From contig JAGRKN010000015.1 of assembly GCA_020442275.1 (NCBI GenBank), positions 11,369 through 75,368 on the forward strand: DNA of 64,000 bases, written 5' to 3'. How positions within the stretch are numbered: position 1 is the stretch's first letter; the number at the start of each line of letters is the position of its first letter. The notes beneath the pieces are model-generated. The model was not told the origin of the DNA. It did no database searches and saw only the letters and a list, made by a program, of their open reading frames with translations. The translations under genes and the position numbers were made by a program. This document shows positions 14,579 to 64,000 of this stretch, one piece after another. The DNA comes from Rhodoblastus sp. GTDB lineage: Bacteria; Pseudomonadota; Alphaproteobacteria; Rhizobiales; Beijerinckiaceae.

Positions 14579-15330
14579 AACGCATCGGAGTGATCGCAGC
14601 GGCGGTGTTGGCCGCCTTCATTGGTAGCGCCGCGGCGGCGGAGCCGCTGGCGACGAGGCCTGAAATGACGCCGCAGAGCGCGTCGGAAGAACGTCCGGCC
14701 GAGATTTTTGTCCGGGCGCTGCGGGCGATCGAGGCGCAGGAGGAGGCGTCGGTGCGCCTGCACGATGCGCTGCTCGAGTATTTTGCGATCCGGCTGACGG
14801 AAATGCCGCATGCGGTGTGGATCGGCGATACCAAGGCGGAGAGGACGGCGTTCGTCTTCGTCGATTACAGCGCGCCTTTTGCGTTCCGGTTTTTGCACGC
14901 GGTCGAGCAGTTCGCGGCGAAGGCGAAGGTGCGCTGCATCGTGCTGCCGGGGAGCATCGATACCGATCAGCAGCCGGTCGCCCGTTTCGTGGCCGGCGTG
15001 ACCGTGATCGGCGAGTTTCCGGCGCTGTTCGAGAAAGGCGTGTCGCTCGGCGACAAGTTCGATGGCGATGTCGTGAGGCTGGTTCCCGAGCAAAAGGGCA
15101 TGAAGGCGACCGAGGCCGGCGGAAAGGCCGAGGCGCTCGATCAGGCGGCGCTGGCCCGCCTGGTGCTTCTGGGTCTCGGCGCCAAGCATCCGACGCTATT
15201 GCGGCTGGACGGCAAGAGCTATGCGGGGTCGCTGGTCGATCCCGAGGAAATGGCCGCATTCTTCTCACAGCGTTCGTCCGCCGCCGATGCTTCGGTGAAG
15301 GCGTTCGAGGAGAAGATCGGCGGCCGCTAG
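14575..15330 (+). CDS. Secreted hypothetical protein (251 aa)
   Basis: ATGA overlap with the upstream gene. Signal peptide MKRIGVIAAAVLAAFIGSAAAAEP. Confidence 0.6.
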   Translation: MKRIGVIAAAVLAAFIGSAAAAEPLATRPEMTPQSASEERPAEIFVRALRAIEAQEEASVRLHDALLEYFAIRLTEMPHAVWIGDTKAERTAFVFVDYSAPFAFRFLHAVEQFAAKAKVRCIVLPGSIDTDQQPVARFVAGVTVIGEFPALFEKGVSLGDKFDGDVVRLVPEQKGMKATEAGGKAEALDQAALARLVLLGLGAKHPTLLRLDGKSYAGSLVDPEEMAAFFSQRSSAADASVKAFEEKIGGR

Positions 15331-15656
15331 ATCGCGATTTGCGTCACGCCGGGGATCTGGACGATCTCGTCGGTGAAAGTTTCGTCGGGCTGGAACTTTC
15401 GGAGGTTGAGGGCGATCTCGACCTCCGAGTTGTAGCTCGCCATTTCCAGCACGATGACGAGGCGGCGATTGTCGCCGATGCCGGACCGGCCGTAGGCGAG
15501 GTAGGCGGCGCGGATGGCGTCGAGCGCTGTGACGCCGGCAGCCTCCTGGACGTGGATGCGGACGGGGTGGCCGGGTGATGCCGGGACGACAACGGCTCGT
15601 TGCGCGAGGCGCGGCGCTTCGTCGACAAGGGCGAGATCGAAATCGAGATTGCTCAT
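15327..15656 (-). CDS. Hypothetical protein (109 aa) translationally coupled to dnaE
   Basis: ATG at 15656 (MSNLDFDLALV...) overlaps the dnaE stop as ATGA. Its stop overlaps the stop of the convergent plus-strand gene (CTAG). Confidence 0.55.
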   Translation of the reverse strand: MSNLDFDLALVDEAPRLAQRAVVVPASPGHPVRIHVQEAAGVTALDAIRAAYLAYGRSGIGDNRRLVIVLEMASYNSEVEIALNLRKFQPDETFTDEIVQIPGVTQIAI

Positions 15657-18600
15657 GCGACCTTCGCTTTCGCGCGCGCGAGCTTGCGCGCGCTGTAGGC
15701 GGCGGCCGGCGTCCATTCGAGAATGGTGCGCTGTGCGCCGATGCGCACGACGTAGACGCCTGGGCCGTCACGGGTGGGTGGAGGCGGCAGGAGGCCGCCT
15801 TTCATGACGGCGCGCAGGGTCGTTTGTCCGTCATCGAGGACGACGGCGATGCGCGAATCCTGCTCCTCGATCTGGGCGAAGACGGCGAGCGCTTCGGTCG
15901 AGACCGTCTTGGACGCCTTTCCGGCGGCGGCCAGCGTATGGACGCGGACGTTGTCGACCAGATGGGCGAATTGATCCGTCGGATGGCGCGTGAGCGAGAA
16001 GCCGTAGGCCGAGGCCTCCATCGCCGCCATTTCGGCGCGGGTAAGCGGCGTGATGCCGCGGACGTGCGGCGAGGCGGCGAAGAGCTGGGGCCCGGAAGGC
16101 GCGTCGCCGCTCTCCAGCTCGGTGAGATAGAGCTGGCGCGAGGTTTCTGGAGGGATGGTCGCATCGAGGGTGTCGAAAGCGCCGGCGCGGATGAGAAGCT
16201 CCATCGTGTGCTTCTTGACGACGGCCGACATCCGCTTGCGGAACTCGACGAAATCGAAAAAGGGGCCGTTGGCTTCGCGCTCGAGACGGATGGCGCGCGC
16301 GACGTCGTGACCGACGCCTTTGATACCGGAGAGCGCGTAGACGATGGAGTTGGCTTCGCCGTTGGTTTCGAGCGTGATGTCGAAGAGTTCGCCTGAAAGA
16401 TTGACGTCAGCCGGTGTGATCGGGACGCCGAGGCGACGGATTTCGGCGACGTCGATTTCGAGGCGGCCGGTGGAATTGGCGTCCTGGTCCATGCAGGCCG
16501 CCATGTAGGCCTGATAGTGATGGGCCTTGAGCCAGGCCGTGACCGAGGTGATGCGGGCATAGGCCGCCGCGTGCGAGCGGTTGAAGCCGTAACCGGCGAA
16601 TTTCGCGACCATGGCGAAGATGTCGCGCGCCTGTGCTTCCGTCATGCGCGGTTCGAGCGTAGCGTTGGCGACGCAGCCTTCGATGAAGGACTTTTCGAGC
16701 GCGGCCATTTCTTCCGGGATCTTTTTGCCCATGGCGCGGCGCAGGAGATCGGCTTCCGCCAGGCTGTAGCCGGCCAGGCGACGGGCCAGATCCATGATCT
16801 GTTCCTGGTAGATCGGAATCCCGTAGGTCGAATGGAGAACCGCGGCCAGCGCCGGATGCGGGTAAGCGATCGGCGCATAGCCTTTCTTGCGGGCGGCGTA
16901 GATGGGGATCTGGTCCATCGGGCCGGGGCGATAGAGCGAGATCAGCGCGACGATATCTTCGAAGCTCGAGATGCCGACGCGCGAGATCGCCCGCTTCATG
17001 CCGGTCGATTCCAGCTGGAAGACGTTGATGGTCCAGCCCTGGCGGAGCATGTCGAAGACGGTTGCGTCTTCGTAGGGCGTCTTCCACGGATCGAAGATTG
17101 CTCCGGTCTTGGCGGCCAGTTCGCGCGCACGGTCGATGATGGTCAGGGTCTTGAGGCCGAGGAGGTCGAACTTCAGCAGGCCCTGGTTGTCGATCGACTT
17201 CATGTCGAACTGGGTTGCCGGGATGCCGGCCGGCGCGCCTTCGTTGTCGGAGAGCGGCGTGATCGATTCCAGCGGATCGTCGGCGAGCACGACGCCGGCG
17301 GGATGGCGCGTCTTGTGAGCGACGACGCCTTCGATCTTGATGGCCGACTGCATTGCCTCGGCGCATTCGACGTCGGAGCCGAGCGCTTCGCGCAGCGCCG
17401 GGCTTTCGGTCAGCGCGGCCTCGAGCGAGTCGACCTTGTCCGGGATGAGGTCGGCGATGCGCTTTTGCTGTCCGGGCGTCAGGCCGAGCGCGCGGCCGGC
17501 GGTGCGCCAGGCGGCCTTCGGCTGCAGGGTTTGCCAGGCGCCGATCTGGGCTACGTGGTCGAGCCCGTAGCGATCGACGATATAGGCGACGACGCGGTCG
17601 CGGCGGCGCTCGCAGAAGTCGATGTCGAAGTCGGGCGGCGAGACGCGCGAGGGGTTGATGAAGCGCTCGAAGAAGAGGCCGAGCTCGATCGGATCGAGAT
17701 CGGTAATGCCGAGGCACCATGCGATGAGCGATCCCGCGCCGGAGCCGCGGCCAGGGCCGACCGGAATGCCGGAGGCTTTTGCAGCATTGACGAAGTCGGC
17801 GACGATCAGGAAGTAGCCGGCAAAGCCGAGCTTGATGATGATCTCGATTTCCATCGCGTAGCGCGCGTCATAGGCGGCGCGGTCGCTGATGCCGTGTTCG
17901 GAAAGACGCTTTTCGAGCCCTTGCGCCGAGACGGTCCGCAGGGTCGCCTTCTCGTCGACGCCCTTGAATGTCGGCATCGACGGCTTGTTCTGGGTGAGCG
18001 CAAAATTGCAGCGGGTGGCGAGCGCGATGGCGTTGTCGGTCGCTCCGGGCAGATCGGCGTAGAGCTCGCGGATTTCTCCGTCGGACAGGTAGTGGGCGAC
18101 CGGCCAGCGCGGCTTCTGGTCTTCGCCGAGAATGTTGATGATGTCGGTGTCGACGGATTCCGCGACGACCGGGATCGGCGCGGCGATCGAGGGGATCGAG
18201 AGCGATGCGGCCTTGCGCGCGACGGCGCGCCCCTGGAGGCCGCCGGCCGAGCGTGCGATGGCGAAGGCGAGCCGATCGGCGGGCAGCCCGGCGATGAGGG
18301 CGGCGATCGCTTCGTGATCGGTGGCAGCCCATGCGGTCGCGGCTGGGCAGCCGGCGTCGATCGAGATGAACAGGGGCGCCGCGGCAAGGGCGGCGATGAG
18401 CTGGGCAAGGTTGAATTGCTTCAGGCGCAGCTCGTTCGAGATGCGGCAGAGCGCCGGCCAGCCCGGGGCGTCCTCGATGTGGACCGCGATTTCGAGGTCG
18501 TCGAGGACGAGACGCGTCCCCAGAACGGCTTTGAGGCCCTTTTTCTTGGCCTCGAGCGATAGTTCGTAGGCGCCGGCGAGGGCCTGGTCGTCGCAGAGCG

Positions 18601-18706
18601 AGGCGACGCCCGACGTTTTGGCGAGCGCGACGATCTTCTTCGGGCTGAGCAGGGAGCGGCCGGTCGTGTAATGACTGGCGGCGTAGAGGAGCGGGATCGC
18701 GCTCAT
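15653..18706 (-). CDS. dnaE: C-family DNA polymerase (Pol III alpha-like), short form with degenerate PHP domain
   Basis: 1017 aa from ATG 18706 (MSAIPLLYAASHYTTG), overlapping the dnaQ stop as ATGA. Hallmarks: PPDFDIDF, GLLKFDLLGLKTLT, FNRSHAAAYA, HhH IKGVGHDVARAI, QLF clamp-binding-like motif at 16079-16087, and an OB fold at the C-terminus. There is no tau-binding tail. The listed 1351-aa ORF N-terminus is R/P-rich junk overlapping dnaQ. Confidence 0.9.
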   Translation of the reverse strand: MSAIPLLYAASHYTTGRSLLSPKKIVALAKTSGVASLCDDQALAGAYELSLEAKKKGLKAVLGTRLVLDDLEIAVHIEDAPGWPALCRISNELRLKQFNLAQLIAALAAAPLFISIDAGCPAATAWAATDHEAIAALIAGLPADRLAFAIARSAGGLQGRAVARKAASLSIPSIAAPIPVVAESVDTDIINILGEDQKPRWPVAHYLSDGEIRELYADLPGATDNAIALATRCNFALTQNKPSMPTFKGVDEKATLRTVSAQGLEKRLSEHGISDRAAYDARYAMEIEIIIKLGFAGYFLIVADFVNAAKASGIPVGPGRGSGAGSLIAWCLGITDLDPIELGLFFERFINPSRVSPPDFDIDFCERRRDRVVAYIVDRYGLDHVAQIGAWQTLQPKAAWRTAGRALGLTPGQQKRIADLIPDKVDSLEAALTESPALREALGSDVECAEAMQSAIKIEGVVAHKTRHPAGVVLADDPLESITPLSDNEGAPAGIPATQFDMKSIDNQGLLKFDLLGLKTLTIIDRARELAAKTGAIFDPWKTPYEDATVFDMLRQGWTINVFQLESTGMKRAISRVGISSFEDIVALISLYRPGPMDQIPIYAARKKGYAPIAYPHPALAAVLHSTYGIPIYQEQIMDLARRLAGYSLAEADLLRRAMGKKIPEEMAALEKSFIEGCVANATLEPRMTEAQARDIFAMVAKFAGYGFNRSHAAAYARITSVTAWLKAHHYQAYMAACMDQDANSTGRLEIDVAEIRRLGVPITPADVNLSGELFDITLETNGEANSIVYALSGIKGVGHDVARAIRLEREANGPFFDFVEFRKRMSAVVKKHTMELLIRAGAFDTLDATIPPETSRQLYLTELESGDAPSGPQLFAASPHVRGITPLTRAEMAAMEASAYGFSLTRHPTDQFAHLVDNVRVHTLAAAGKASKTVSTEALAVFAQIEEQDSRIAVVLDDGQTTLRAVMKGGLLPPPPTRDGPGVYVVRIGAQRTILEWTPAAAYSARKLARAKAKVA

Positions 18707-19350
18707 GGGGCGGGTTCCCTGTGCTGCGGCGCGAGGAGGGGAATCTGGATCGGGGTGCGGTCGGTTTCCTCGGTTTGCGCGAGGAGCGCATCGAGGAAAT
18801 CGCCCTGCGTGCGCGGCGTGTCGAGCATGACGCGCATGCGGCAATAGGCGGTGGCGAGCAACTCGCAGTCGACGAGAGCCTCGTGGTAGGTCGAGCGCGC
18901 GTCGGTCGAAATGTTGAGACGGCGGCATACGGCGTCGAGCGAGACGGGTTTGCCTGGCCATAGCCGCTTGGCGATGTTGATCGAATCCTCGACCGGAACG
19001 GCGAGCGTGATGTCGGGAAAGCCGACGCGCAGGCATTCGGCGGACAGGAAGCGCATGTCGAATGGCGCGTTGTGCGCGATGAGGCGGGAATCGCCGATGA
19101 ATTCGGCAATCGGAGGCCAAGCGTCCTGGAATAGGGGCGCGGTCGCGAGATCGTCGTCCTTGATGCCGTGGACGAGGAACGAGGACCATTGGACAGGGAC
19201 GCCCTCGGGATTGACGCGTCGTTTGATCGAACGGCCCGTCGGTCGCAGATCGATGATCTCGACGGCGGCTATCTCGATGACGCGATGGCCGGCGTCGGGA
19301 TCGAGGCCGGTCGTTTCGGTGTCGATGACGCAGGCGCGGGTTGGCGACAT
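18703..19350 (-). CDS. dnaQ: DnaQ-like 3'-5' proofreading exonuclease (Pol III epsilon family)
   Basis: Exo I VIDTETTGLD, Exo II LIAHNAPFDMRFL, Exo III YHEALVDCELL. ATG 19350 is preferred over the listed TTG 19377, which lies inside the terminator U-run. Confidence 0.88.
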   Translation of the reverse strand: MSPTRACVIDTETTGLDPDAGHRVIEIAAVEIIDLRPTGRSIKRRVNPEGVPVQWSSFLVHGIKDDDLATAPLFQDAWPPIAEFIGDSRLIAHNAPFDMRFLSAECLRVGFPDITLAVPVEDSINIAKRLWPGKPVSLDAVCRRLNISTDARSTYHEALVDCELLATAYCRMRVMLDTPRTQGDFLDALLAQTEETDRTPIQIPLLAPQHREPAP

Positions 19351-19375
19351 TGGTTTTCGGGTTGCCGGATGGTCC

Positions 19376-19418
19376 AAAAGACGGCGCCGGCGTCACTTCG
19401 GGAGAAGTCGCCGGCGCC
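19376..19418 (-). terminator. Strong hairpin (terminator or attenuator candidate) between the DUF736-like gene and dnaQ
   Basis: GGCGCCGGCG (19383-19392) pairs with CGCCGGCGCC (19409-19418), extended by ACTTC/GAAGT around a GGGA loop. On the minus strand it is followed 3 nt later by UUUU (19376-19379). Confidence 0.45.
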
Positions 19419-19439
19419 GAGGGTGCGAGGAACTGACGA

Positions 19440-19859
19440 TCAGTTCTTCTGGGACGGCTTGTCGTTGCCGAGCGAGTAGAAGGGGCTCTTGGCCGGCGAG
19501 CCGTCGGACTTCTTGTCCTTGTAGAAGCCGACGACATTGAAGGTGGCGCGTGCGCCGTTGTAGTCGTGCTCGAAGCTGAAGCGGATCGCGCCCTTGCCGA
19601 TCTGGCCGAAGAAGCGGGTCTTGAACATCGCGCCGCTGAACGCGGGCTCGGACGAGGTCTGGCCGTTTTCGCGGCGGGCGGCCGAGAAACGGTAGTACTC
19701 GGAATCATTCTTCGACTTCTGCGGCGTCGGATCGATCGTCATGGCGTATTCGACGTTGTCGATCTTGATCGTGCCGGAGATGGCGTTGTTGTCGCCGGTG
19801 AACAGGCTGCCGACGATCTTCGCGTCGAGGGCGACCGGCGGCTTGGCGTATTCTGTCAT
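19440..19859 (-). CDS. Hypothetical protein (139 aa), possibly DUF736-like
   Basis: SGTIKIDNVEYAMTIDPTPQKSKNDSEYYRFSA loosely resembles the DUF736 pattern (TGTI.TL....v.i.P........PD.R) common on alphaproteobacterial conjugative elements. The family call is tentative. Confidence 0.6.
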   Translation of the reverse strand: MTEYAKPPVALDAKIVGSLFTGDNNAISGTIKIDNVEYAMTIDPTPQKSKNDSEYYRFSAARRENGQTSSEPAFSGAMFKTRFFGQIGKGAIRFSFEHDYNGARATFNVVGFYKDKKSDGSPAKSPFYSLGNDKPSQKN

Positions 19860-19908: not shown

Positions 19909-22251
19909 TCAGGCGGCCCGTTTGGTCTGCTGCAGGACGTCGGAGACGATCTGCGTCAGAAGGATCGGGAGTTCTGACGTGTCACGGATATTTCTCCAGC
20001 CGGGAATCTTCATCGTCGGGGCGTTCGGACCAATGCCGATGCCGACGAGGTAGACGCCGGATCTGATTATTCCGTTGGCGGCGCTGAGCGTGCGTTTTCG
20101 ATCGCTGGCTTCTCCGTCCGTGATGAGGAAAAGGATTTTACGCTTCTCCGAGCGCAAGCGAAGCGCCTTTTGCGCTTCGAGCAAACCGAAATGGGTCGGG
20201 GTGCCGCCGTTTTCGCCGTCGGCCGGAATTGCGCCGATGGCGCTCTTGAGAGCGCTGGGGGCGTCGGTGAACCGCTTGATCCATTTGATCAGGTGGGAGG
20301 CTGGCGCGCTGGTGTAGGTCAGCGCCGCCGTGTGCACGTCGCGGTCGGTTCCGATCGCAGAAGCGAGCGCTGCTGTCGCTTCGGCGAGATGATCGAGGCG
20401 GGTTTTTCCGGAGCGATCTTTTTCGCGCATCGAGGCCGAGAGGTCGAGGCAGAAGACGACGGATGCCGCGCGATCCTTGCGGGCGTCGCGACGGGAATAG
20501 ATGTCGGACGACCCGGTCGAGATGCCGATCAGGTTGCTGAGATCGAGATCGCCATCCTCGAGCTGGAAGCGTTCGCGGCGGTAGGTTTCCGACGTGAGCA
20601 GCTTGCGCGCGGCCTGGGCGACGCGCGCGGCCGATGCGCCGCCCTTTTGGAGCAGGCGATGGTAATTGGGCATGTCGCGATCGTCGCTGATGCGGATCTC
20701 GATGCGCGACAGGTCGTGTTCGTCGGCGCCGGCGCCGGTCGCCTTGACGATGGCTGCGATCACGTCGCTGACGTCGAGCGCAGTTGTCGGAATGGCGTCG
20801 CTATCAGCAGTCGGCGAGAGCGGCGCGGCGCCGCCCGAACTGGCGCCTTGCTGCGACGGGCTGCCGGAACCGGCGGTCACGCCGCCGCCGGCCTGGCCGT
20901 GCGATGCCTGCTGCTGCGGCTGCTGGCCCTGTGGACCGGCGGATTGTGATGTGCCGCCGGGCGCCGCGCCGCTTTGCGGCGGCGAGCCCGAGCTGGAGGA
21001 ACCAGGCTGGGCGTCATGATCGGCGCCTTGAGCAAGTTTCGACGGATCGCCGGTATTGTCCTGCTGGGGCGCCGGCGCGTGCTGATCGGAAGCGCCGGCG
21101 CCTTGGCCGTCGGCCGTATTGTTGTTCTTCTGGTCGTTGGATTGGCCGCCGGAGCCGCCTTGAGGTTGGTTCTGGTCCGACGGAGAGGTTCCGTCAGCGC
21201 CGGTGGGCGGGTTGGCGTCGGATTTGGTGTCCTTGGGGTCGCCAGATGGGTCGGAGTTCGTGGCGTCGGGTTTGGTTTGGGGCTGAGCGCCCGACGAAGG
21301 GTCGGCCTGATCGTCCGTCTTGCTTGAATTGGAGTCGGATCGATCGGAGCCGTCGTTGCCCTTGCCAGCGCCGGGCTGCGACGAAGGCTGATTCTGCTGG
21401 GGTGAGTTCTGCGGCTGCTGTTGCTGCTGGGCCTGCTGCTGCGGAGGCGGCGGCGGGGGATCCTTCTTGAAATATTTGTTGGCGCATTCGACAGCGATGT
21501 CGAAAGCGAGCTCCATGACCTCTCGATGGGAGCCGAGCTGAAGAATGGCTGGCCAATAGGCGTCGAGCATCTGACGCCCGTCCGGGCAGAGCGCGCTGGC
21601 GCGGTCGAGATTGGCTTTGGCGATTGCGGCGCAGGGGTAGGCGTTGTCGATGCAGCCTGCCCAGGTGATCATGGCGCCGAGCGCGTTCGGCATGGGCATT
21701 TCGGTGACGCCGGCCAGCTCGGCGGCCTGGCGCTCATTCACGTGGAGGCGCGTTTTGGCGATGTTCAGGAACGAGCCGGGATAAGCGCGCTTGATCGCGC
21801 GCTCGATGCGCCAGTCCTCGATGGTGTTGTCGATGTACTGCGAAGTGCGCCAGATCCAGTATTCCTTTTCGTCGATGCCGAGCGCTGCACGCTGTTCGGG
21901 CGTGTCGATCTTTTCTCTGGAGTTCGGCGCGCCAAGGATCTTGCCGAGGACGGCGGAGAGTTTGCGCTTGGCGAACGTCCAGACGTAGGGGATCTCGCTG
22001 TAGAGGACGTGCGCGCATTCGTGGTTGGAGTAGCCACGCAGAACGAGCGCCTTGGATTCTGGATATTGCTCGGTCGAGGAAAGCTCGGGGATGCGGATCG
22101 TGGGTACAGCGGCCGGCGTCGTGTAGGCGACATAGGCCTGCGCGCCGGCGAATTCGACCGGAATCTTGGCGCCGGTGAGCGCGGAAATCGTGCTTTCGAT
22201 TTCTCCGCGCAGAATGTACCCCGGAATGGTTTTCTCGATGGGCGACGACAT
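19909..22251 (-). CDS. CobT-like VWA protein with N-terminal HExxH motif and long disordered linker
   Basis: 780 aa from ATG 22251 (MSSPIEKTIPG). HECAH at residues 77-81 (22009-22023). P/Q/S/G/D-rich low-complexity region at residues about 263-485. C-terminal VWA with MIDAS DLSAS (603-607) and LFLITDGEASD. The listed 994-aa ORF N-terminus overlaps the upstream gene and looks non-coding. Confidence 0.8.
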   Translation of the reverse strand: MSSPIEKTIPGYILRGEIESTISALTGAKIPVEFAGAQAYVAYTTPAAVPTIRIPELSSTEQYPESKALVLRGYSNHECAHVLYSEIPYVWTFAKRKLSAVLGKILGAPNSREKIDTPEQRAALGIDEKEYWIWRTSQYIDNTIEDWRIERAIKRAYPGSFLNIAKTRLHVNERQAAELAGVTEMPMPNALGAMITWAGCIDNAYPCAAIAKANLDRASALCPDGRQMLDAYWPAILQLGSHREVMELAFDIAVECANKYFKKDPPPPPPQQQAQQQQQPQNSPQQNQPSSQPGAGKGNDGSDRSDSNSSKTDDQADPSSGAQPQTKPDATNSDPSGDPKDTKSDANPPTGADGTSPSDQNQPQGGSGGQSNDQKNNNTADGQGAGASDQHAPAPQQDNTGDPSKLAQGADHDAQPGSSSSGSPPQSGAAPGGTSQSAGPQGQQPQQQASHGQAGGGVTAGSGSPSQQGASSGGAAPLSPTADSDAIPTTALDVSDVIAAIVKATGAGADEHDLSRIEIRISDDRDMPNYHRLLQKGGASAARVAQAARKLLTSETYRRERFQLEDGDLDLSNLIGISTGSSDIYSRRDARKDRAASVVFCLDLSASMREKDRSGKTRLDHLAEATAALASAIGTDRDVHTAALTYTSAPASHLIKWIKRFTDAPSALKSAIGAIPADGENGGTPTHFGLLEAQKALRLRSEKRKILFLITDGEASDRKRTLSAANGIIRSGVYLVGIGIGPNAPTMKIPGWRNIRDTSELPILLTQIVSDVLQQTKRAA
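21409..21459 (-). repeat. Trinucleotide (CCG)n-(CAG)n coding tract
   Basis: The plus strand reads ctgcggctgctgttgctgctgggcctgctgctgcggaggcggcggcggggg and encodes PPPPPPQQQAQQQQQPQ inside the CobT-like linker. Confidence 0.6.
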
Positions 22252-22280
22252 CGTCGCCGCCCCGGCGGTCGATGCGCGGG

Positions 22281-27338: not shown

Positions 27339-27349
27339 GGAGAGTTGAA

Positions 27350-46649: not shown

Positions 46650-46651
46650 TT

Positions 46652-47104: not shown

Positions 47105-47110
47105 GAAATT

Positions 47111-47150: not shown

Positions 47151-47168
47151 ATACCTGCGGCCGGCCTT

Positions 47169-52122: not shown

Positions 52123-52125
52123 GGA

Positions 52126-53358: not shown

Positions 53359-53369
53359 GGCGTTGCCTC

Positions 53370-54278: not shown

Positions 54279-54363
54279 GGCGGGTAGCTCTTTAGGGGTT
54301 TGACGGTGGAAGAACTTTCAATGGTCGGCGATAACCCCGGAAGAACATATAGCGAACGTGGGT

Positions 54364-56553: not shown

Positions 56554-56659
56554 GAATAATCCGTTTGTTGAAACGGATTTTCTTGAAAGTCCGTGGCCAT
56601 TGCAAGCGGTGTCGTGATAAAATCGCTGCGGTCAGGATCAAAGCACGGAGATCGTCAAA
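56554..56659. promoter_or_regulatory. Divergent control region (topB leftward, orf348 rightward) with perfect palindrome and extended -10 box
   Basis: AATCCGTTT-GTTG-AAACGGATT at 56558-56579 ends 4 nt from the topB ATG. The plus strand has TGATAAAAT (hexamer 56618-56623) 37 nt before ATG 56660. SD GGAG at 56647-50. Confidence 0.45.
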
Positions 56660-57706
56660 ATGGGCAAGGCAGCGCGCAAAGTGGCGTCGGCGGGTCAGTC
56701 GTTTCTCGGGGCGACGGTGTCGTTCTACGCGCCGAATGCGAAGGTCGATCAGATGCTGGCGCAGCTCGAGAAGGCCGGGGTCCGCGCGAAGTTCAATGCG
56801 AGGACGCGTGGCTGGGAAGCCCAAGCCTCGATGCTCAATTTCAAGGACAAGGCGGTGAATGACGCGATCGCCGAATATGGCGCGTTTTCCGAGAATTTCC
56901 GTGCGGCGCGCCAGGAGAAGGCGAGCGGCGCCGCCGATCTGAAGGCGGCCGTCGAGGCGGGGCCGAAGCTCGCGAAGACGAGCTTCACGATCAGTGTCGT
57001 CGAGAACGGCAAGGAGCGGCCGATCCGCAGCGGCGATCTCGAGACGGCGCCGCGTCGGTCGGTTCCGATGGCCGAGTCCGACGTTACGACCTATGCGGGG
57101 CGCCAGGCATGGGCGAAGGAGCAGGGACGCGAGTTCCTGGCCGCATATGTGCTCTACGGCATGTCGCTTGCCGGCGAGCGCGCGCCGGAGCGCCGTGCGC
57201 AGCAGATGGCGCAGCTGAAGGCGGCGCCGACAGAAGACATTCGCGAGGTCGCCAACCGCAATTCGCAGCGCTATGGCGAGCTCGCCGCGAAAGAGGATCG
57301 GGTGCGGTTCGAATACGTCGTGGCGCACGACGCTTTCTGGAAAGAGAAGGCCGAAGGCAAGAAGGATCCGGAAGGCCGCGAGGAGGTCTTCCAGGAGTTT
57401 GCGCGCCTCGATCACCACGAGAAGCGCGAGCTGGCGACGGTGGGCCGCAAGACGCCGATCGGGCTTTCGGAGGCCGACCGCGGTCTGATGGTGTCGCTGT
57501 CGAACGGCTGGCGGGCGATGCAGCAGGAATATTTCGATCGCACGAACGAGCGGTTTGCGCAGGGGATCGTCACGGCGGCGACACGTCGCAATTCGGTGAT
57601 CGACGCATCGGCCGGCTCGTTGCGCTCCGTCGTTGCAGAGACGAGCTCGATCGAGGGCAAGAAGGCGGCAGAACGTATTCGTGATGCCGTCGACCGCGAG
57701 CAGTGA
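56660..57706 (+). CDS. Hypothetical protein (348 aa)
   Basis: ORF with SD and its own terminator. K/E/A-rich. No recognised domain. Confidence 0.6.
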   Translation: MGKAARKVASAGQSFLGATVSFYAPNAKVDQMLAQLEKAGVRAKFNARTRGWEAQASMLNFKDKAVNDAIAEYGAFSENFRAARQEKASGAADLKAAVEAGPKLAKTSFTISVVENGKERPIRSGDLETAPRRSVPMAESDVTTYAGRQAWAKEQGREFLAAYVLYGMSLAGERAPERRAQQMAQLKAAPTEDIREVANRNSQRYGELAAKEDRVRFEYVVAHDAFWKEKAEGKKDPEGREEVFQEFARLDHHEKRELATVGRKTPIGLSEADRGLMVSLSNGWRAMQQEYFDRTNERFAQGIVTAATRRNSVIDASAGSLRSVVAETSSIEGKKAAERIRDAVDREQ

Positions 57707-57730
57707 GTGGTTGGACGATCGGGAAGAAAT

Positions 57731-57760
57731 AAGGCCGGGCCCTTTCGGGCTCGGCCTTTT
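57731..57760 (+). terminator. Rho-independent terminator after orf348 (likely bidirectional)
   Basis: AAGGCCGGGCCC (57731-42) pairs with GGGCTCGGCCTT (57747-58): 12 bp, 1 mismatch, TTTC loop. It runs into TTTT (57757-60). GAAGAAAT precedes it, giving a U-rich tract for the opposite strand. Confidence 0.7.
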
Positions 57761-57780
57761 GCTTGATGGCGGCGGGTCGC

Positions 57781-57984
57781 CTAATGAACCGTGAGATGGT
57801 CCCGCCAGAGGCTTTCGACGATCTGTTCGACGGCGCCCTCTGCGGTGACCGGAAGGCTGAAATCGGAGAGGGCGTTGAGAATGTGCTCGCTGCTCACGGT
57901 TTCGGCGAGAGGGTTGTCGGCGAACTGCAGGTTATAGGCCGCCTTGACGGCGGCCGCGATGCGGTCTGGATTGAAGAGCGTCAT
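57781..57984 (-). CDS. Hypothetical small protein (67 aa)
   Basis: ORF 18 nt downstream of UvrD paralog 3. No recognised domain. Confidence 0.45.
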   Translation of the reverse strand: MTLFNPDRIAAAVKAAYNLQFADNPLAETVSSEHILNALSDFSLPVTAEGAVEQIVESLWRDHLTVH

Positions 57985-58002
57985 GGAAATCGCTATTTGG
58001 TT

Positions 58003-59880
58003 TCAGGCGGCCGAGGAGATCGGCGCGCCGTCGGCCTGGACGAGGTTGAGTTCGGTGAGGAAGGGCGAAGGACCGTAGCTGCGATCGTAGAGCAGCCAGG
58101 CGTCGCCCGCCGCGCGTGTGATCGTGACAAAGGCGATCTTGCGTTCTTCCTCGAAATCGGCGGGCGAGACATTGCGGCCGGTGCGCGGGAACTTGCCTTT
58201 GTCCCAGCCCGGGCTGATCACGATTGGCGCCTGCAGTCCCTTCATTCCGTGCATGGTCGAGATCAGAACCGCGTCCGGCAGGTTGTCGGGATCGATCAGA
58301 TCGTTCTGGGCCATTTCGAGGACGACCTTGAGGTCGGGCTGCTGGCGGGCATGAAGGACGAGCGACTGGTAGAGGCGCCAGAACTTGGTTTTCGGCGCAG
58401 ACGGCAGGTTGTTGACCTGCTTCTCGATGTTCGTCTTGTCGATGACCATCTGGATGATTTCATCCGGCGCGAGGATTTTGGCCTCGGTGGTGATCGCGTC
58501 GACCATCGCGACGAACGCCTTGAGGTCGGGCGTCGCGTCGGGATAGCGCTGAACGTTGCGGATGGCGGTCGTCAGCATGGGCAGGTTCTGCATGCGTGCC
58601 TGCAGGTAGAGCGAGTTGACGACGTCGGTGCCCAGCATCCGGTCGGCGATGGTGATGAAGGCCGCGTCATCCCATGAATTGACGATCATGCGGATCCAGG
58701 CGACGAGGCGCTGGATGTATTCCGACGAATTGGCGTCGGGCATGAAAATGTGGACGGGGATGCTGGCGGCCGCGAGGTCGGCGGCGATCCGGTTGCACTC
58801 CTCGTTGGTGCGACCGAGGATCGCGACGGAATTCCAGGGCAGCTCGATGTCGCGAGAATAGATGATCTGCTCCATGGCGCGGCGCATGCCGATGGCGGCG
58901 TCGTAACCGACCGCGTGGAGCGCGCCGATCTTGTTGTTGACCGAGCGCAGGATCTTCTTGTGGCGGTTCTGGTTGTGCTCGATCATCCCAGCGGCGCGGT
59001 TGAGGACGTCCGCCGGGCAACGATAGTTTTCCTTGAGCGTGACGATCTCGGCGTTCGGCCAGGCGGTGCCGAAGGTGAGGATCGCTTCGACGCGTGCGCC
59101 ACGGAACGCATAAATCGACTGATCGTCGTCACCGACGCAGGTGAGCTGGCAGTTGGGGCCGACCATGAGTCGGATCCATTCCTGCTGCGCGCGATCGGTG
59201 TCCTGATATTCGTCGACCGTGATCAGGCGGAATTGGTCGCGGTACTTGGCGAGGACGTCGGGCTGCGTGCGCAGCATGTGGATGGTCTCGCAGATGAGGT
59301 CGCCATAGTCGTAGCAGTTCATGGCGGCGAGATCGCGCATGTAGGCGCGGATCAGCGCGAGATCGGAGGCCATCGGGCGAATGGCCGCGCGCGGCCAGTT
59401 GGCCGGGTCGTCGCTGATGAGCGCGCCGGAACCCTTGATCTGATCGATCGTGCGCAGGATCTGGCTGACGCGGCGGTCGTCGGGCGCGACGCGCTCGAGG
59501 CGCGCGATGACGCTCGACATCACGCGGCGGGCCTCTTCGGTCTGGATGACGGTGAATGTGTCGCGCAGCGCGTGATAGGAGGGGTTCTCGCGCAGAATAC
59601 GCGAGCAGATGGCGTGGAAGGTGCCGATCCAGAGCTTCGAGGGGTCGAGATCGGGACGCGCAAGCGCGGTCGAGATGCGCTGGCGCAGTTCGTTGGCGGC
59701 CTTGCGCGTGAAGGTGACGGAGAGCAACGCGTCGGGCTTGTAGCCAAGCGTGTCGCAGGCATAGACGGCCTTCGCCGTCAGGACGTGCGTTTTGCCGGTC
59801 CCGGCGGTCGAGAGGACCAGGACGGGACGGTCCATTGTCGTGACAGCTGTGAGTTGTTCGGGATTGAGGCTGTCGAGCAT
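58003..59880 (-). CDS. UvrD/Rep-family SF1 helicase, paralog 3 (625 aa)
   Basis: ATG 59880 (MLDSLNPEQLTAV). LVLSTAGTGKTH, LSVTFTRKAA, ITVDEYQDTDR, VGDDDQSIYAFRGA, ENYRC, TMHGMKGLQ, AFVTITRAA. Confidence 0.9.
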   Translation of the reverse strand: MLDSLNPEQLTAVTTMDRPVLVLSTAGTGKTHVLTAKAVYACDTLGYKPDALLSVTFTRKAANELRQRISTALARPDLDPSKLWIGTFHAICSRILRENPSYHALRDTFTVIQTEEARRVMSSVIARLERVAPDDRRVSQILRTIDQIKGSGALISDDPANWPRAAIRPMASDLALIRAYMRDLAAMNCYDYGDLICETIHMLRTQPDVLAKYRDQFRLITVDEYQDTDRAQQEWIRLMVGPNCQLTCVGDDDQSIYAFRGARVEAILTFGTAWPNAEIVTLKENYRCPADVLNRAAGMIEHNQNRHKKILRSVNNKIGALHAVGYDAAIGMRRAMEQIIYSRDIELPWNSVAILGRTNEECNRIAADLAAASIPVHIFMPDANSSEYIQRLVAWIRMIVNSWDDAAFITIADRMLGTDVVNSLYLQARMQNLPMLTTAIRNVQRYPDATPDLKAFVAMVDAITTEAKILAPDEIIQMVIDKTNIEKQVNNLPSAPKTKFWRLYQSLVLHARQQPDLKVVLEMAQNDLIDPDNLPDAVLISTMHGMKGLQAPIVISPGWDKGKFPRTGRNVSPADFEEERKIAFVTITRAAGDAWLLYDRSYGPSPFLTELNLVQADGAPISSAA

Positions 59881-59936
59881 GGGGCAAGCCTTTAGGGGTT
59901 GGCGACAGGAAGAAAAGCAAACTGGGTGGAAGGCTG

Positions 59937-59964
59937 AAAATGGAATGCGGCCGGAAGGCCGCAT
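59937..59964 (-). terminator. Weak terminator or hairpin after virD4
   Basis: Perfect 8-bp stem ATGCGGCC (59945-52) with GGCCGCAT (59957-64), GGAA loop. On the minus strand it is followed by UCCAUUUU. Confidence 0.4.
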
Positions 59965-59972
59965 TTATGGGG

Positions 59973-62900
59973 TCATGCATCTTCGAATTCGACCGCGGGC
60001 TCCTCGGTGACGATCTCGTAGGCCTGCTGGGGCGTTGGGTCGTGAACCGCGTCAGCGGCAGTGGCTTGGGCTCGTCGAGCCTCGGTTTGGGAAATATTGA
60101 ATTTGATTTCGTCGACTCGGCCCATGCGCTGGTGATCCGGGATGGTCTGACGCGCGACAGGGCCCTTGCCGCGCGAGCGCACGAGCGGTGCGATGAGCGG
60201 ATCGTTGAAGAAGAATGGCGCAAGCAGCTTCATCGGGCGGTTGAGGAAGCCCTGCACGAGCACGATGACCTGACCGGGCGGCAGCGCGGCGATGTCTTCG
60301 TGGCGGAGCATCTTCACTGCTTCGAGGTTTTCGGAGGAGCTCCACGCGAGCGGATTGGCGGCCTTCGAGAAGCCTTCTTGCGTCGATTTGGAATGACGCA
60401 TGATGGTCGTTTCGCCGACCATTTCGATGATTTGCTTCGTGGTGTCTGCATTGTTCTGCTGCAGAATGATCTTCACAGCCGTCGTGCTGTTGATCACGCT
60501 GACGTCGGCCTTCGAGTAGATGAGTTCGAGCTGCCCGTAGTCCTGCGCGTAAAAGGCGTAGGAGGTCTGCTTCGACCGGCCGAGGTCGGGGCCTCTGAGA
60601 ACCGATTCCGACTTTGGGAGCTTGGCGAACTCGTCGAGGACGAAGAGAACAGGGAAGGGACCGAGAATGCGGTCGGTCTTCTCGTTGTGTTCGTAAGGGC
60701 CGAACGAAATCAGAGAGTTCGAGAGGACTTCGTAGAGCAGCGCTGTGATGGTGGCGAATGCCGCCGCCTCGGCCTGGTTGACGCAGACGTAGAGCGTCAG
60801 CGGCAACCAGCTGTTGGGCTCGTAGAAAAGGCGCTCGAATTCTTCGGACGCCCATTTGAAATGCTCGAGGCCCTTGTCGTCGACGTAGCGCGTGCGTCCG
60901 GGATTGAGATAGTTCTGGTCGTTCGGGGGCAGGCGCGTGCGCGCGAGGATTTCCTGCTTGAGGACGCCACGCATGTCGTCGGGGGTGAAATCGGTTGCCG
61001 ACGTGCGCTGCTTGACGGCCTCGTTCTTGAAGGGCAGGAGCGCTTGGTCCATCGTGCCGAGCACGCCGGACCGTTCCTTGTCCGCCATGTTGACGAGGGA
61101 CGAAAGTTCGAGGAAGGCGCGCGGCGAGGCGAGCCTCTTGTTGTCTTCGCCGGGCTTGATGATTTCGCAGAGCTTGCGAATCCAGTCGCCGAGCCGGTCG
61201 GTCGAGGGCGGTGGTCCGCCGTAGGACTCCTGCTCTTGCTCGACGGGTTTAGTGTTTTCGAGCTGGGCGTAGGCGATCCAGTCCGACAGCATCGGCAGCG
61301 ACGGCTCTTTGCCGCGCCAGTCTTCGGGCAGTTCTTCCTGGAACTTCGTGTTGTCGGCGTTGTCGCCGAAGACGGTGATGAGGTAGTGGCAGAAGCCCGT
61401 AAAGGCGGCGCGGCCCTTATTGACGAAGTACGTGTCGCCGCCGCCCTTCGGGTCGGGGATCATCACCTTGGCGATCGAGTCGATGTAGGTGTCGCGATTG
61501 GGGCCCCGCGGAGGGACGAGGAGCGGCGACAGGAAGTTGAAGCGTGGATAAAATACAGAGCGCTCCGGATTTTGCTCATCGATAGTATCGACTTTTGACC
61601 AGTCAAGCATATATACAGATGAAACGGTCTCGCGGTGCGCGCCCGTGGCTGCTCTGATTTCAGGCTTGGGATCGTTGACTATAAGTGAGACGCGATCAGC
61701 AGTAATAATTGTCGGAATAACAAAAGCAGCGGTATTATGTGTTACCGTAAAATCATCGAGCAAGTACTGATGATCGCCGTCTATTATGATGCCGAAATAT
61801 GGGCCGTCGCCGATCGGCTCGATTTCGAAGCCGACGTTGGTGACGTCTTTATTGATCCGTCGCGACTCTGCGTGACGGCGGAAGAGTTTGACAGGTATGC
61901 GGTCGACGTCGCCGCTGATGAAAAGGCGCCAGTAGACCGTGTTCTTGATGATACGAGGGGTTGGGTAGGCGGCAAGGCCAAGGGACCGCGCGACGAACGC
62001 GATGTCATTGGCGAGCGTTTCGGAGGCCGTGCAGAAGTCGTATCCGCGACCTGCGGGGTCGTATGAGCCATCGGTGTCGATCAGGCCAGCCAAGAGGGCT
62101 AGGCGGTCATCGGCGCTGGCGGTCTTGTAATCATGCGGGATGAACTTTTGGCAGCAGGGCACGTCGAGGCCGTAATCGCGTAGCTCGGCTAGCAGACTGT
62201 TGGCGCGCCAACGCTCTCCGGGGGTCGCGTTGCCTGCGGTGACGAAATACGAGCCGGAGCGATTGCCTTCTTGATGTTCTTCGCGGATCTGGAGGCCGCG
62301 CGCCTCGGCCTCGGCGTAGATTTCGGCGACAAGTTCGTTGTCCGCGGTATGCAGACCGGCTTTTTTGTTAGTCGTTCCGTCGCCGAGCAGTAGGCCAAGG
62401 CGATAAGGATCGATCTTGAGGCAAGCGTTCGACTGGAAGTCGACGGCAGCGCGCCATTGCTTGTAGAGCGACTTCTGGGTTGGCGACCACGCGAGGTAGT
62501 CCTCGACGGAGGTGAATTTGATGTGACCGCGAAGTGGATTGCGAGCGCGTCGGCGCGGCTCTTTGGAATTGCGCAGCGAAAGGATGTGATAGCCGTTGCA
62601 AATCCAGGAGCGGCCCTTGTTGGGCGTTACGCGATAGAGGGGGCCGTAGCCAGTGCTGGTCGAGAGGATGCGGCGCGGCTTGCTGTCGGGGCCCATCAGA
62701 AGGTCGCCGACAACGAGAGCGCCGGTGCGCTTGGTCGTGCCGTCGAACATCAGGACGGGTTCGTCCGGATGGAGGCATTTTCCTGTGCCTGGTGGCGCGA
62801 GACACAAAGAAGAAAGCGTCTCGATCATCTGTACCATCTGGCCTTTACGCTCGCGACCCTGCCAGCGGCCAAGTGTCATCAAGCGTCCGCCAGCAATTCC

Positions 62901-63359
62901 GACTTGCTTTCTGGCCTCCATTTGCTTGAGCGCGTCGTCATCGCACCAGTCGGCATAGCCGGCCTTCAGGATGATCTTCTTGTGCTTGTTGAAGAACTGC
63001 GGCGTAAAACCGAGAAATGAGCCGAAAAGCAACCAACCCATCAGCTTGGTTATCGGCGTGACGTCGAAATTTCCATTCGCGAAGCCGGCGAAATAGCCGG
63101 ACGCGATGAACATGTCGTGGAAATTGAGCGTGACGACGTCCGTGTTGTAGCGGACGAGCAGAGCCCAGGCGCTCGACAGCGAGAAGCGGTGCGTGACGAT
63201 GCGATGGAAGAGCGCTTCGTTGAGCGGGGCGTACAGCGGAAAAAGAATGGCGAGGAGGAGCGCGAGCGACAGCGACAGGTACAGGATCCGGTAGTGCCGG
63301 TCCCGTTCCTCCGTCATATGGCTGGGCAGCGTCTCTCGCGAGAAGGCATTGAACGTCAT
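59973..63359 (-). CDS. virD4: Type IV coupling protein (VirD4/TraG family) interrupted in-frame by an intein
   Basis: Two N-terminal TM helices. The Walker A is split: LAPPGTGK | intein | TAAFVIPTII. Then SLIVNDPKPE, Walker B VLFVLDEFAKL, and AQDYGQLELIYSKADVSVINSTTAVKIILQQNNADTTKQIIEMVGETT. Confidence 0.9.
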   Translation of the reverse strand: MTFNAFSRETLPSHMTEERDRHYRILYLSLSLALLLAILFPLYAPLNEALFHRIVTHRFSLSSAWALLVRYNTDVVTLNFHDMFIASGYFAGFANGNFDVTPITKLMGWLLFGSFLGFTPQFFNKHKKIILKAGYADWCDDDALKQMEARKQVGIAGGRLMTLGRWQGRERKGQMVQMIETLSSLCLAPPGTGKCLHPDEPVLMFDGTTKRTGALVVGDLLMGPDSKPRRILSTSTGYGPLYRVTPNKGRSWICNGYHILSLRNSKEPRRRARNPLRGHIKFTSVEDYLAWSPTQKSLYKQWRAAVDFQSNACLKIDPYRLGLLLGDGTTNKKAGLHTADNELVAEIYAEAEARGLQIREEHQEGNRSGSYFVTAGNATPGERWRANSLLAELRDYGLDVPCCQKFIPHDYKTASADDRLALLAGLIDTDGSYDPAGRGYDFCTASETLANDIAFVARSLGLAAYPTPRIIKNTVYWRLFISGDVDRIPVKLFRRHAESRRINKDVTNVGFEIEPIGDGPYFGIIIDGDHQYLLDDFTVTHNTAAFVIPTIITADRVSLIVNDPKPEIRAATGAHRETVSSVYMLDWSKVDTIDEQNPERSVFYPRFNFLSPLLVPPRGPNRDTYIDSIAKVMIPDPKGGGDTYFVNKGRAAFTGFCHYLITVFGDNADNTKFQEELPEDWRGKEPSLPMLSDWIAYAQLENTKPVEQEQESYGGPPPSTDRLGDWIRKLCEIIKPGEDNKRLASPRAFLELSSLVNMADKERSGVLGTMDQALLPFKNEAVKQRTSATDFTPDDMRGVLKQEILARTRLPPNDQNYLNPGRTRYVDDKGLEHFKWASEEFERLFYEPNSWLPLTLYVCVNQAEAAAFATITALLYEVLSNSLISFGPYEHNEKTDRILGPFPVLFVLDEFAKLPKSESVLRGPDLGRSKQTSYAFYAQDYGQLELIYSKADVSVINSTTAVKIILQQNNADTTKQIIEMVGETTIMRHSKSTQEGFSKAANPLAWSSSENLEAVKMLRHEDIAALPPGQVIVLVQGFLNRPMKLLAPFFFNDPLIAPLVRSRGKGPVARQTIPDHQRMGRVDEIKFNISQTEARRAQATAADAVHDPTPQQAYEIVTEEPAVEFEDA
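61734..62777 (-). mobile_element. Class-1 intein (348 aa) with LAGLIDADG homing-endonuclease domain, inserted in the T4CP P-loop
   Basis: Residues 195-542 of the ORF. It starts CLHPDEPVLMFDG (Cys1). Block B-like ICNGYHIL. LAGLIDADG motifs LGLLLGDGTT and LLAGLIDTDGS. C-terminal YFGIIIDGDHQYLLDDFTVTHN is followed by Thr (+1). Confidence 0.85.
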
Positions 63360-63379
63360 GGGCGCCCTGCGTTTTTCCG

Positions 63380-64000
63380 TCAGAGGATTTCAGAGATGTA
63401 GCGGCCGCGGTCGTCCCGCTTGACCTGGATGACGCGAAGTTTCGCGAGCATCTGGGCGCGCAGCGCCTCGGGATCGACGTGCGAATTGATGCCGGCGTGG
63501 GCGTTGGCCATCTCGATGAGGCGGATGAAGGTGCCGATGGCCTCGTCGCCGCTTTCGGCGTGCACGGTGGTCATGAACGAGCCGTGGCCGCTGTTCATGA
63601 GATCCCAGACGATCGCGGCGTTTTGCGTGGAAAGCTCGCCGGCGAGCACGACGTCGGGCGTCATGCGCGTGATCATCTGGCGGACACCGGGGTAATCGAG
63701 CGCGTTACCTTGGTCCGTGCGGCTGAGAACGATGTGCACGCGGTTCGGGGCAGGAACGATCAGCTCGCGTGTGTCTTCCACTGTGACGAAGCGCTTGTGA
63801 TGGCTGATCGATTTGATCAGACGATTGATGAGCGTCGTCTTGCCGCTGCCGGTCGATCCGGAAACGAGGATGTGGTCGCCGCGCGTCAGCGAATTGGCGA
63901 CGCGCGCATAGGCGTCGTTCGGATCGGTTTCCTTCGTGAAAAGGCTCTGTAGCGGCGAGCGTAGCGCGACGCCGCGCTTGACGTCGTAGTCGGAGAGTTC
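63380..64000 (-). CDS. virB11: VirB11/TrbB-family T4SS ATPase, 5' end beyond the window
   Basis: The frame is open to base 64000; the listed ORF starts at an internal GTG 63781. My translation of 63782-64000 gives ...LTRGDHILVSGSTGSGKTTLINRLI..RFVTVEDTRELIV. Downstream are RMTPDVVLAGELS and NSGHGSFMTTVHA. Confidence 0.85.
   Translation of the reverse strand, partial: ELSDYDVKRGVALRSPLQSLFTKETDPNDAYARVANSLTRGDHILVSGSTGSGKTTLINRLIKSISHHKRFVTVEDTRELIVPAPNRVHIVLSRTDQGNALDYPGVRQMITRMTPDVVLAGELSTQNAAIVWDLMNSGHGSFMTTVHAESGDEAIGTFIRLIEMANAHAGINSHVDPEALRAQMLAKLRVIQVKRDDRGRYISEIL

Follow-up and report, generated by a model that had tools for sequence, protein, structure and literature searches.

The DNA analysed here, a 64,000-nucleotide stretch of contig JAGRKN010000015.1 (Rhodoblastus sp., assembly GCA_020442275.1) referred to below as the window, belongs, with a probability that we put at about three in four, to a conjugative megaplasmid that encodes its own DNA polymerase III (Pol III) core, is likely autonomous, and resides in a Hyphomicrobiales host, and not to a phage hybrid or to two separate elements. 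Genes of the window were identified by profile searches with Pfam, NCBIfam and PHROGs, a full type IV secretion system (T4SS) continues from its right edge, and its gene order recurs in real circular plasmids. We infer an extrachromosomal existence for the element, and its replication by the replisome that it encodes. An earlier, sequence-only reading of the same stretch had offered a large conjugative plasmid with its own polymerase as one possibility, and this is supported by the T4SS on contigs identical to the window, the collinear circular plasmids, and a relaxase in four relatives. The gene list of that reading was real, with 21 of its 25 calls backed by Pfam, NCBIfam or PHROGs.

Relatives were located by tblastn of PLSDB. 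Two of them are circular plasmids, pMVF16-3 of Microvirga sp. VF16 (NZ_CP069357.1, 731 kb) and a plasmid of Erythrobacter aureus YH-07 (NZ_CP031358.1, 408 kb), of which about 230 kb and about 270 kb, respectively, were sampled. Genes in pMVF16-3 appear in the order MobA/MobL relaxase, hypothetical protein, DnaB-like helicase, VirB2 through VirB11, VirD4, UvrD, exonuclease, Rad52, primase-like protein, a 1120-residue protein, SSB, UvrD, RecD-like helicase, uracil-DNA glycosylase (UDG), DEAD helicase, MoxR, vWA protein, exonuclease, and dnaE. Twenty-three window proteins are collinear with their pMVF16-3 homologs at 25-61% identity, including the product of a 348-residue gene on the opposite strand. 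The E. aureus plasmid shows the same gene order, and it carries in addition ParB-N and Sbno proteins, a class I ribonucleotide reductase (RNR), ThyA, DHFR, MazG, Tmk, RecJ, RadA, LigA, RecA, and a DnaQ-DnaE pair. A plasmid of Sphingosinicella sp. BN140058 (NZ_CP035502.1) is probably related too, to judge from sequence matches to VirB4 and CobS/CobT only. The order from T4SS to DnaE is kept in relatives whose VirB4 is 33-55% identical to that of the window element and which come from two bacterial orders. At one metagenome locus (L109) the order is SF2 helicase, CobS, CobT, then polymerase, DsbA and pilus genes, and the polymerase is a DnaQ-DnaE fusion of about 1300 residues (10001-13918) that is 37% identical to the window DnaE; a fusion in the same module order implies that the superfamily is wider.

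The conserved, almost one-directional backbone defines an alphaproteobacterial megaplasmid family that is apparently undescribed. It reads: an array of small open reading frames (ORFs), relaxase, small protein, DnaB, VirB2 to VirB11, VirD4, UvrD, TopB, exonuclease/Rad52, primase-like protein, giant protein, SSB, UvrD, VirB6-like protein, RecD, UDG, ParB/Sbno, SF2 helicase, CobS/CobT-like proteins, DnaQ and DnaE. With pMVF16-3 and the E. aureus plasmid the window element shares the order from relaxase and DnaB through the T4SS to DnaQ-DnaE, the one-strand orientation, and the polarity of the skew. It differs from them in several respects: the two plasmids are 2-5 times larger, protein identity is 25-61%, TopB adjoins DnaE in pMVF16-3, unlike in the window, and the cargo of the two plasmids taken together includes Tad pilus, flagella, Wadjet, RecA, LigA and ThyA. 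Across the relatives, Tad-pilus or flagellar clusters, Wadjet, RecA, LigA, RadA, RecJ and ThyA/DHFR are found, and both plasmids have long arrays of small ORFs without known function upstream of the relaxase. Searches of the full-text literature found no paper that describes the family or either of the sequenced plasmids, in agreement with the sequence-only reading, which could match the region to no described family.

The T4SS genes run off the right end of the window. A VirB11-type ATPase is represented by its C-terminal 206 residues at 63380-64000 on the minus strand (Pfam T2SSE, 1.9e-24); on contigs 100% identical to the window, the full gene encodes 372 residues and would end at about 64498. 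Beyond it on these contigs come VirB10/TrbI, VirB9/CagX, VirB8, proteins of 58, 525 and 257 residues (the last weakly matching PF07996, the Pfam family named "T4SS"), a 70-residue protein, VirB4 (845 residues, CagE_TrbE_VirB), a pair of VirB3-like proteins, and TrbC/VirB2. All of these genes share the strand of the window genes. The search of the flanks for virB2-B10 that the sequence-only reading had proposed placed them directly to the right of the window. Mating-pair-formation families are covered by TrbC, VirB3, VirB8, CagX, TrbI and T2SSE on the flank contigs and by a TrbL/VirB6-like protein in the window; the VirB2-VirB11 mating system is complete and continuous with the window. VirB4 has only about ten relatives among 5.8 billion proteins.

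Next to VirB11 lies the gene for a VirD4/TraG-type coupling protein of 1128 residues (59973-63359, minus strand; T4SS-DNA_transf at 1e-34, TraG-D_C, Hom_end_hint, LAGLIDADG_3), which is 54% identical to VirD4 of pMVF16-3. Alignment with three intein-free relatives delimits within it a LAGLIDADG intein of 348 residues (61734-62777, minus strand). Its insertion point is exactly the Walker A loop, APPGTGK|C...THN|T, and its C...HN/T junctions are canonical. Neither pMVF16-3 nor the E. aureus plasmid has it. Several assemblies break inside this intein-bearing gene. A VirB6/TrbL-like membrane protein (41229-42242, minus strand; Pfam TrbL at 3.3e-7, 30.7 bits against a cutoff of 25.9) is placed among the replication genes, and the E. 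aureus plasmid has a gene annotated 'type IV secretion system protein' between UvrD and RecD. The gene beside it (42311-43321, minus strand) had been labelled SLT/VirB1-like. It encodes a conserved protein of 336 residues, 44% identical to its pMVF16-3 homolog and possibly a lytic transglycosylase, but the SLT match is weak and below threshold (E 0.087), so that the label is not supported; comparison with PDB sequences gave no match.

The polymerase core is at the other end of the backbone. DnaQ, the proofreading exonuclease, has 215 residues (18703-19350, minus strand; TIGR01406 at 1.3e-48, RNase_T), and DnaE, the Pol III alpha subunit, has 1017 (15653-18706, minus strand; DNA_pol3_alpha at 1e-81); the two are translationally coupled. 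A 1351-residue ORF at 15653-19708 was rejected as a gene in its own right, as it consists of DnaE plus the overlapping DnaQ, and independent gene calls on identical contigs agree. Profile searches found neither a PHP nor a C-terminal OB-fold match in DnaE. E. coli DnaE has an H-x-H motif in its PHP domain; at that place the N-terminus of the window DnaE reads YAAS. In a scan of 185,579 species genomes from GTDB, no DnaE was more than 45% identical to it, and the matches, at 36-45%, were all chromosomal, from which it follows that the element is absent from every species-representative genome. The DnaE phylogeny suggested in the sequence-only reading was built as a crude neighbor-joining tree, in which the window DnaE pairs with that of the Microvirga plasmid, apart from chromosomal Sphingomonadales and Methylobacterium DnaE; with its long branches, this placement suggests an affinity to plasmid DnaEs. 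The sliding clamp DnaN (372 residues, 3006-4124, minus strand) matches three Pfam beta-clamp domains at about 1e-33 each. The window itself encodes the alpha, epsilon and beta subunits, SSB and a primase-like protein; DnaB is found only in the relatives.

The window is uniform throughout, with a G+C content of 64% and a plus-strand GC skew of about +0.17. Coding density is 0.94. The tight packing on one strand that had been reported holds for about 86% of the coding sequence, which is on the minus strand, but not for 9 of the 54 genes called, which are on the plus strand. Scans of the window for tRNAs, Rfam RNAs, iterons and tandem repeats found nothing. Several very long ORFs (15653-19708, 19909-22893, 52126-54204 and 797-2674) were set aside as high-GC artefacts that fuse or shadow real genes; the one at 797-2674 is a shadow ORF opposite a plus-strand UvrD gene. 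The left edge that the sequence-only reading had placed at 15327 is not real: composition is uniform, the element fills positions 1-64000, and two plus-strand genes to the left of 15327 have pMVF16-3 homologs, as do those at and left of the window edge (bPH_2, a 422-residue protein, an SNF2 helicase and an M50 protease).

Contigs from public assemblies extend the window. Positions 1-14124 are 100% identical to ENA contig k141_237770 (106 kb), 44364-61388 to contig k141_710780 (69.5 kb), and 52479-64000 to ENA scaffold_182. Exact copies of DnaN, TopB, UvrD, the SF2 helicase and one T4SS protein occur in 102-164 assembly blocks, DnaN in 164. The longest carrier contig seen is 155 kb, and none in more than 100 assembly blocks exceeds 200 kb. 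The window is an internal 64-kb stretch of a replicon of at least 155 kb, and probably less than 200 kb. A megablast search of PLSDB with 24 kb of the window gave no match, and a scan of JGI metagenomes with the VirB11 fragment gave one weak, unrelated match only. Scaffold_182 diverges from the window inside rad52 (window position 52478); at a Pro/Ala-rich low-complexity stretch of that gene it passes into unrelated and, by its look, compositionally different DNA with PTS-HPr genes (locus L086, 17403-18906). This was considered as an integration junction and rejected, an assembly chimera being most likely.

A further question is whether two unrelated islands, one with the T4SS and one for replication and nucleotide metabolism, merely lie side by side, or whether the region is chromosomal or chromid core DNA. 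A housekeeping flavour of dnaN, nrdJ, GT2/GtrA, epimerase and DUF2269 genes, without homologs in the sampled Microvirga regions, would fit such an origin. But the order from T4SS to DnaE persists down to 33-55% VirB4 identity across two orders, the VirB6-like gene is embedded among helicases, composition is uniform, and DnaE is not close to any chromosomal DnaE. Collinearity in two circular plasmids and in metagenome relatives rules out unrelated adjacent elements, one of the outcomes by which the sequence-only reading had said it would be refuted. We regard this explanation as largely refuted already and the least credible of those considered.

An integrative and conjugative element (ICE) or genomic island, inserted in a chromosome or a larger plasmid, is a more serious alternative to a free plasmid. 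One carrier contig was binned in an NCBI metagenome-assembled genome labelled Beijerinckiaceae, which fits an integrated element and counts against a free plasmid; the Microvirga backbone lies within a 731-kb replicon that also holds a RepC gene and insertion sequence (IS) elements; and the ends of the window element are outside the sequence that was read. On the other side, the window and the readable flanks contain no integrase, tRNA or att-like repeat, none of the carrier contigs in more than 100 assembly blocks passes 200 kb or, where readable, runs into housekeeping genes, and the two complete relatives are circular plasmids, with a one-strand architecture common to the parts of them that were sampled. 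On balance, we consider integration unlikely.

A phage-plasmid or jumbo phage, with its virion genes in the unread part and a T4SS added, would account for content reminiscent of large phages (DnaE/DnaQ, CobS/CobT-like proteins, NrdJ, Rad52 with an exonuclease, DUF1064, UDG and GapR), for the placement of nearly all genes on one strand, and for the many small ORFs of the relatives, and at least 68 kb was not read. Searches with Pfam and PHROGs nevertheless found no capsid, terminase, portal or tail families in the window plus flanks, about 87 kb in all. Scans of IMG/VR with DnaN and VirB11 returned no relatives in 2.9 million contigs, and megablast of 24 kb of the window against 50,697 phage records gave no near match. 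A concatenated query of eight phage-style proteins found no phage with more than two of the eight modules (CobS plus CobT, at about 27% identity); the plasmid relatives hold those modules at 30-47% identity, and AAA/VWA (CobS/VWA) pairs occur on thousands of plasmids. Annotated tables for the sampled parts of the E. aureus plasmid and pMVF16-3 show no virion genes, and these relatives carry flagellar, Tad-pilus and Wadjet clusters. The phage-plasmid alternative of the sequence-only reading is accordingly very improbable. Its term "phage-style" is apt for the gene content but not for ancestry, as the closest homologs are on plasmids (CobS-like protein 47% and TopB 61% identical to pMVF16-3). 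From the synteny with plasmid relatives and the negative results for phages and chromosomes, the replication gene set is the conserved backbone of a plasmid family, and not a recent acquisition from phage or chromosome or a chance juxtaposition.

Several findings weigh against a self-replicating conjugative megaplasmid. Relaxase, oriT, DnaB and Rep or partition genes were not seen in the part of the element that was read, rightward to virB2, and at least 68 kb of the element lies outside that part. A clamp loader was not found in the window, the flanks or the relatives. MOB-suite types pMVF16-3 and the E. aureus plasmid as non-mobilizable, and transfer has been demonstrated for no member of the family. 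The RepC gene of pMVF16-3 raises the prospect that the self-encoded replisome is auxiliary and not the main replication machinery. For the window itself, the earlier list of what is missing was correct: virion genes, integrase, relaxase, Rep and clamp loader were all not found there.

Some of what the read part lacks is present in relatives. In four of them virB2 is immediately preceded by genes for a MobA/MobL relaxase, a small protein and DnaB, and their VirB4 proteins are 82%, 55%, 46% and 33% identical to that of the window element; a metagenome relative at 52% VirB4 identity (L095) has no relaxase within 10 kb upstream. By analogy, we would expect relaxase and DnaB upstream of virB2 on the window element too. 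Both relatives typed as non-mobilizable carry a relaxase and a full VirB/D4 set. Upstream of the relaxase, a candidate MOBQ-like nic motif, GTG[CG]NNC[CT]T, occurs in four of four relatives (L094 at about 3600-3900, L090 at 3580-4620, L091 at 15780-16400 and L100 at 43560-44130), in each case on the G/T-rich strand, opposite to the sense strand of the relaxase gene; an 8-bp inverted repeat comes before it in L090. Against a background of 0.05-0.19 occurrences per kb per strand this is suggestive of an oriT, for a pattern that was defined post hoc. If the motif is the nic site, the small-ORF array upstream of the relaxase would enter the recipient first and the T4SS last, and the transferred strand would be the template for nearly all genes.

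Strand asymmetry sets these replicons apart. At four-fold degenerate sites, sense-strand GC skew is -0.37 for minus-strand genes and +0.21 for plus-strand genes, so the skew, in AT as well as GC, tracks the DNA strand and not transcription. Most window genes are on the C/A-rich strand, and the polarity is the same in all relatives; ordinary bacterial replicons show the opposite relation of genes to the C-rich strand. Wherever the E. aureus plasmid was sampled, one strand carries almost all the genes, and plus-strand skew is +0.08 to +0.13 in 22 of 22 windows round the circle, with no change of sign. Such a skew does not fit the usual bidirectional theta mode with co-oriented genes; replication in one direction, or recurrent exposure of the G/T-rich strand in single-stranded form, would be compatible with it.

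A bolder proposal, which we offer tentatively and think doubtful, is that these are virus-like conjugative replicons of about 0.15-0.73 Mb, an undescribed lineage with its own Pol III core, DnaB and primase, whose replication is unidirectional or of displacement or rolling-circle type and tied to the relaxase-DnaB module. The transferred strand, template for about 90% of the genes, would then be repeatedly exposed as single-stranded DNA, and such exposure would explain the one-sign GC and AT skew round the replicon and the position of the genes on the C-rich strand.

Between the T4SS and the middle of the window lies a block for helicases, recombination and priming. A UvrD/Rep-family helicase of 625 residues (58003-59880, minus strand; Pfam 1.8e-67) is found as the exact protein in 118 assembly blocks and is 36% identical to its counterpart at that position in pMVF16-3; an upstream start giving a 653-residue ORF was rejected. 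The conserved 348-residue gene at 56660-57706, called on identical contigs and without a domain found, is on the plus strand, an odd exception within a co-oriented replicon. Its pMVF16-3 homolog is at the same place and likewise in opposite orientation, and the E. aureus plasmid has a 375-residue opposite-strand gene at the same spot. Topoisomerase III (TopB, 729 residues, 54364-56553, minus strand; Topoisom_bac at 4e-91, Toprim, DUF5710) is followed by a RecE/YqaJ-type recombination exonuclease of 302 residues (53370-54278, minus strand), whose pMVF16-3 homolog adjoins Rad52. The earlier YqaJ-like label is upheld as far as exonuclease goes by a PHROG match (phrog_434, 6.6e-11), weakly, as no other library supports it. 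The Rad52-family single-strand annealing protein has 410 residues (52126-53358, minus strand; Rad52_Rad22 at 3.4e-17) and a Pro/Ala-rich tail. Beside it is a Zn-ribbon/Toprim primase-like protein of 321 residues (51157-52122, minus strand; phrog_6088 DNA primase at 3e-15, weak Pfam CHC2), whose E. aureus homolog is annotated as CHC2 zinc finger.

The giant family-specific protein of 1301 residues (47169-51074, minus strand) has positional homologs of 1120 residues in pMVF16-3 (25% identity) and 1398 residues in the E. aureus plasmid, and just 10 relatives among 1.84 billion representative proteins. It had been called polyvalent, but Pfam, PHROGs, NCBIfam and PDB gave no domain. SSB (150 residues, 46652-47104, minus strand; Pfam SSB at 8.5e-10) and a second UvrD-family helicase (699 residues, 43934-46033, minus strand; Pfam 1.6e-68, 42% identical to its pMVF16-3 homolog) complete the block.

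From the RecD gene to the polymerase, all identified genes are again on the minus strand. The RecD-like SF1 helicase has 586 residues (37898-39658; AAA_19/AAA_30/UvrD_C_2/SH3_13) and is 45% identical to that of pMVF16-3. Pfam identifies a DUF1064 protein (34851-35306) and a UDG-family protein (34243-34854; 47% identical to pMVF16-3). A ParB-N-domain protein (32422-34173; PRTRC_parB at 2.5e-16) and a Strawberry-notch (Sbno) helicase (28538-32344; AAA_34 at 4.8e-74, Helicase_C_4) form a pair that the E. aureus plasmid also has, in unchanged order. Three further genes identified with Pfam have collinear pMVF16-3 counterparts: an SF2 DEAD-box helicase (24001-25587; 44% identical), an AAA_5 MoxR/CobS-like ATPase (22281-23897; 47%), and a CobT-like VWA protein (19909-22284; 32%). 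The trio is also present in the E. aureus plasmid and at metagenome locus L109. The CobT-like protein contains a low-complexity linker of about 300 residues rich in Pro, Gln, Ser and Gly. For the gene at 19440-19859, previously called DUF736-like, profile searches gave no match.

At the left, four plus-strand genes at 11975-15330 were called without an assigned function; two have pMVF16-3 homologs at 31.7-33.5 kb. A class II (B12-dependent) RNR, NrdJ (1120 residues, 8583-11945, minus strand; Ribonuc_red_lgC at 4e-114, Ribonuc_red_2_N), has no homolog in the sampled regions of pMVF16-3. It appears to be variable cargo, the E. aureus plasmid having a class I RNR instead. NrdJ has a C-terminal TSCPD domain and, within the barrel domain, a weak TACO1_YebC_N-like stretch. 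Between nrdJ and dnaN is a homolog of the GapR-type nucleoid-associated protein (5695-5937, minus strand), which points to an alphaproteobacterial host. The left end holds a DUF5983 protein (2687-2989, minus strand), a UvrD-like helicase (971-2545, plus strand) and, within 1-2989 on the plus strand, a partial bPH_2 protein and a 139-residue gene.

These parts suggest how a conjugative megaplasmid of this kind may work. The relaxase would nick the DNA upstream of virB2, at an oriT, and one strand would pass into a new cell by means of the T4SS, the coupling protein and the relaxase. There the plasmid SSB, primase, DnaB, Pol III alpha, epsilon and beta, TopB, Rad52/exonuclease and RNR would establish and copy the DNA, relying less on the host; a clamp loader and initiator would come from the host or from another part of the element.

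By the usual definition, a plasmid depends on the replisome of its host. Mating-competent plasmids with their own polymerase core, clamp, helicase, primase, recombination and dNTP genes would blur the line between plasmids and large viruses, and replisome independence could explain a broad host range. Members go unrecognised in public genomes, and since both sequenced relatives are labelled "non-mobilizable" although they have a relaxase and a full T4SS, censuses of plasmid mobility miss them. E. aureus YH-07 and Microvirga VF16 are strains in culture, which makes transfer, direction of replication and polymerase dependence directly testable for two members. The skew of one sign, with genes on the C-rich strand, offers a concrete anomaly that can be measured.

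Classical VirB/D4 (MPF-T) plasmids with MOBQ-type relaxases are represented by the pTi type, the pKM101/R388 type and IncQ mobilisation modules. The window element has in common with them the VirB2-B11 plus VirD4 set and, in its relatives, the MobA/MobL relaxase, and the adjoining of relaxase and DnaB-like helicase in the relatives recalls the mobA-repA arrangement of IncQ. Classical plasmids rely on host Pol III; to our knowledge they have no DnaE, DnaQ, DnaN, RNR or Rad52 and no hundreds of kb of co-oriented genes. Recombination genes of the Bet/Exo type are found in SXT/R391 ICEs and IncA/C plasmids, and genes for SSB, TopB, helicase, ParB-nuclease and Sbno in other large conjugative megaplasmids. 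An annealing protein with an exonuclease and accessory DNA-metabolism genes are shared with this group, but the family of the annealing protein differs, no sequence relationship to its members was detected, and we know of none among them with a replicative polymerase core.

Phage-plasmids of the SSU5/pHCM2 type and phiCbK-like Caulobacter phages have capsids, terminases and tails and, as far as we know, no T4SS. Phage-plasmids and phages with C-family polymerases resemble the window element in DnaE-type polymerase, nucleotide metabolism, CobS/CobT-like and GapR-type proteins, and one-strand orientation; the best phage matches to window proteins are 27-43% identical and concern single modules only. 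A conjugative megaplasmid is itself of a known kind. What is new is a Pol III core of its own, with clamp, helicase and a supply of dNTPs, together with a single orientation of genes throughout the replicon and a skew of one sign.

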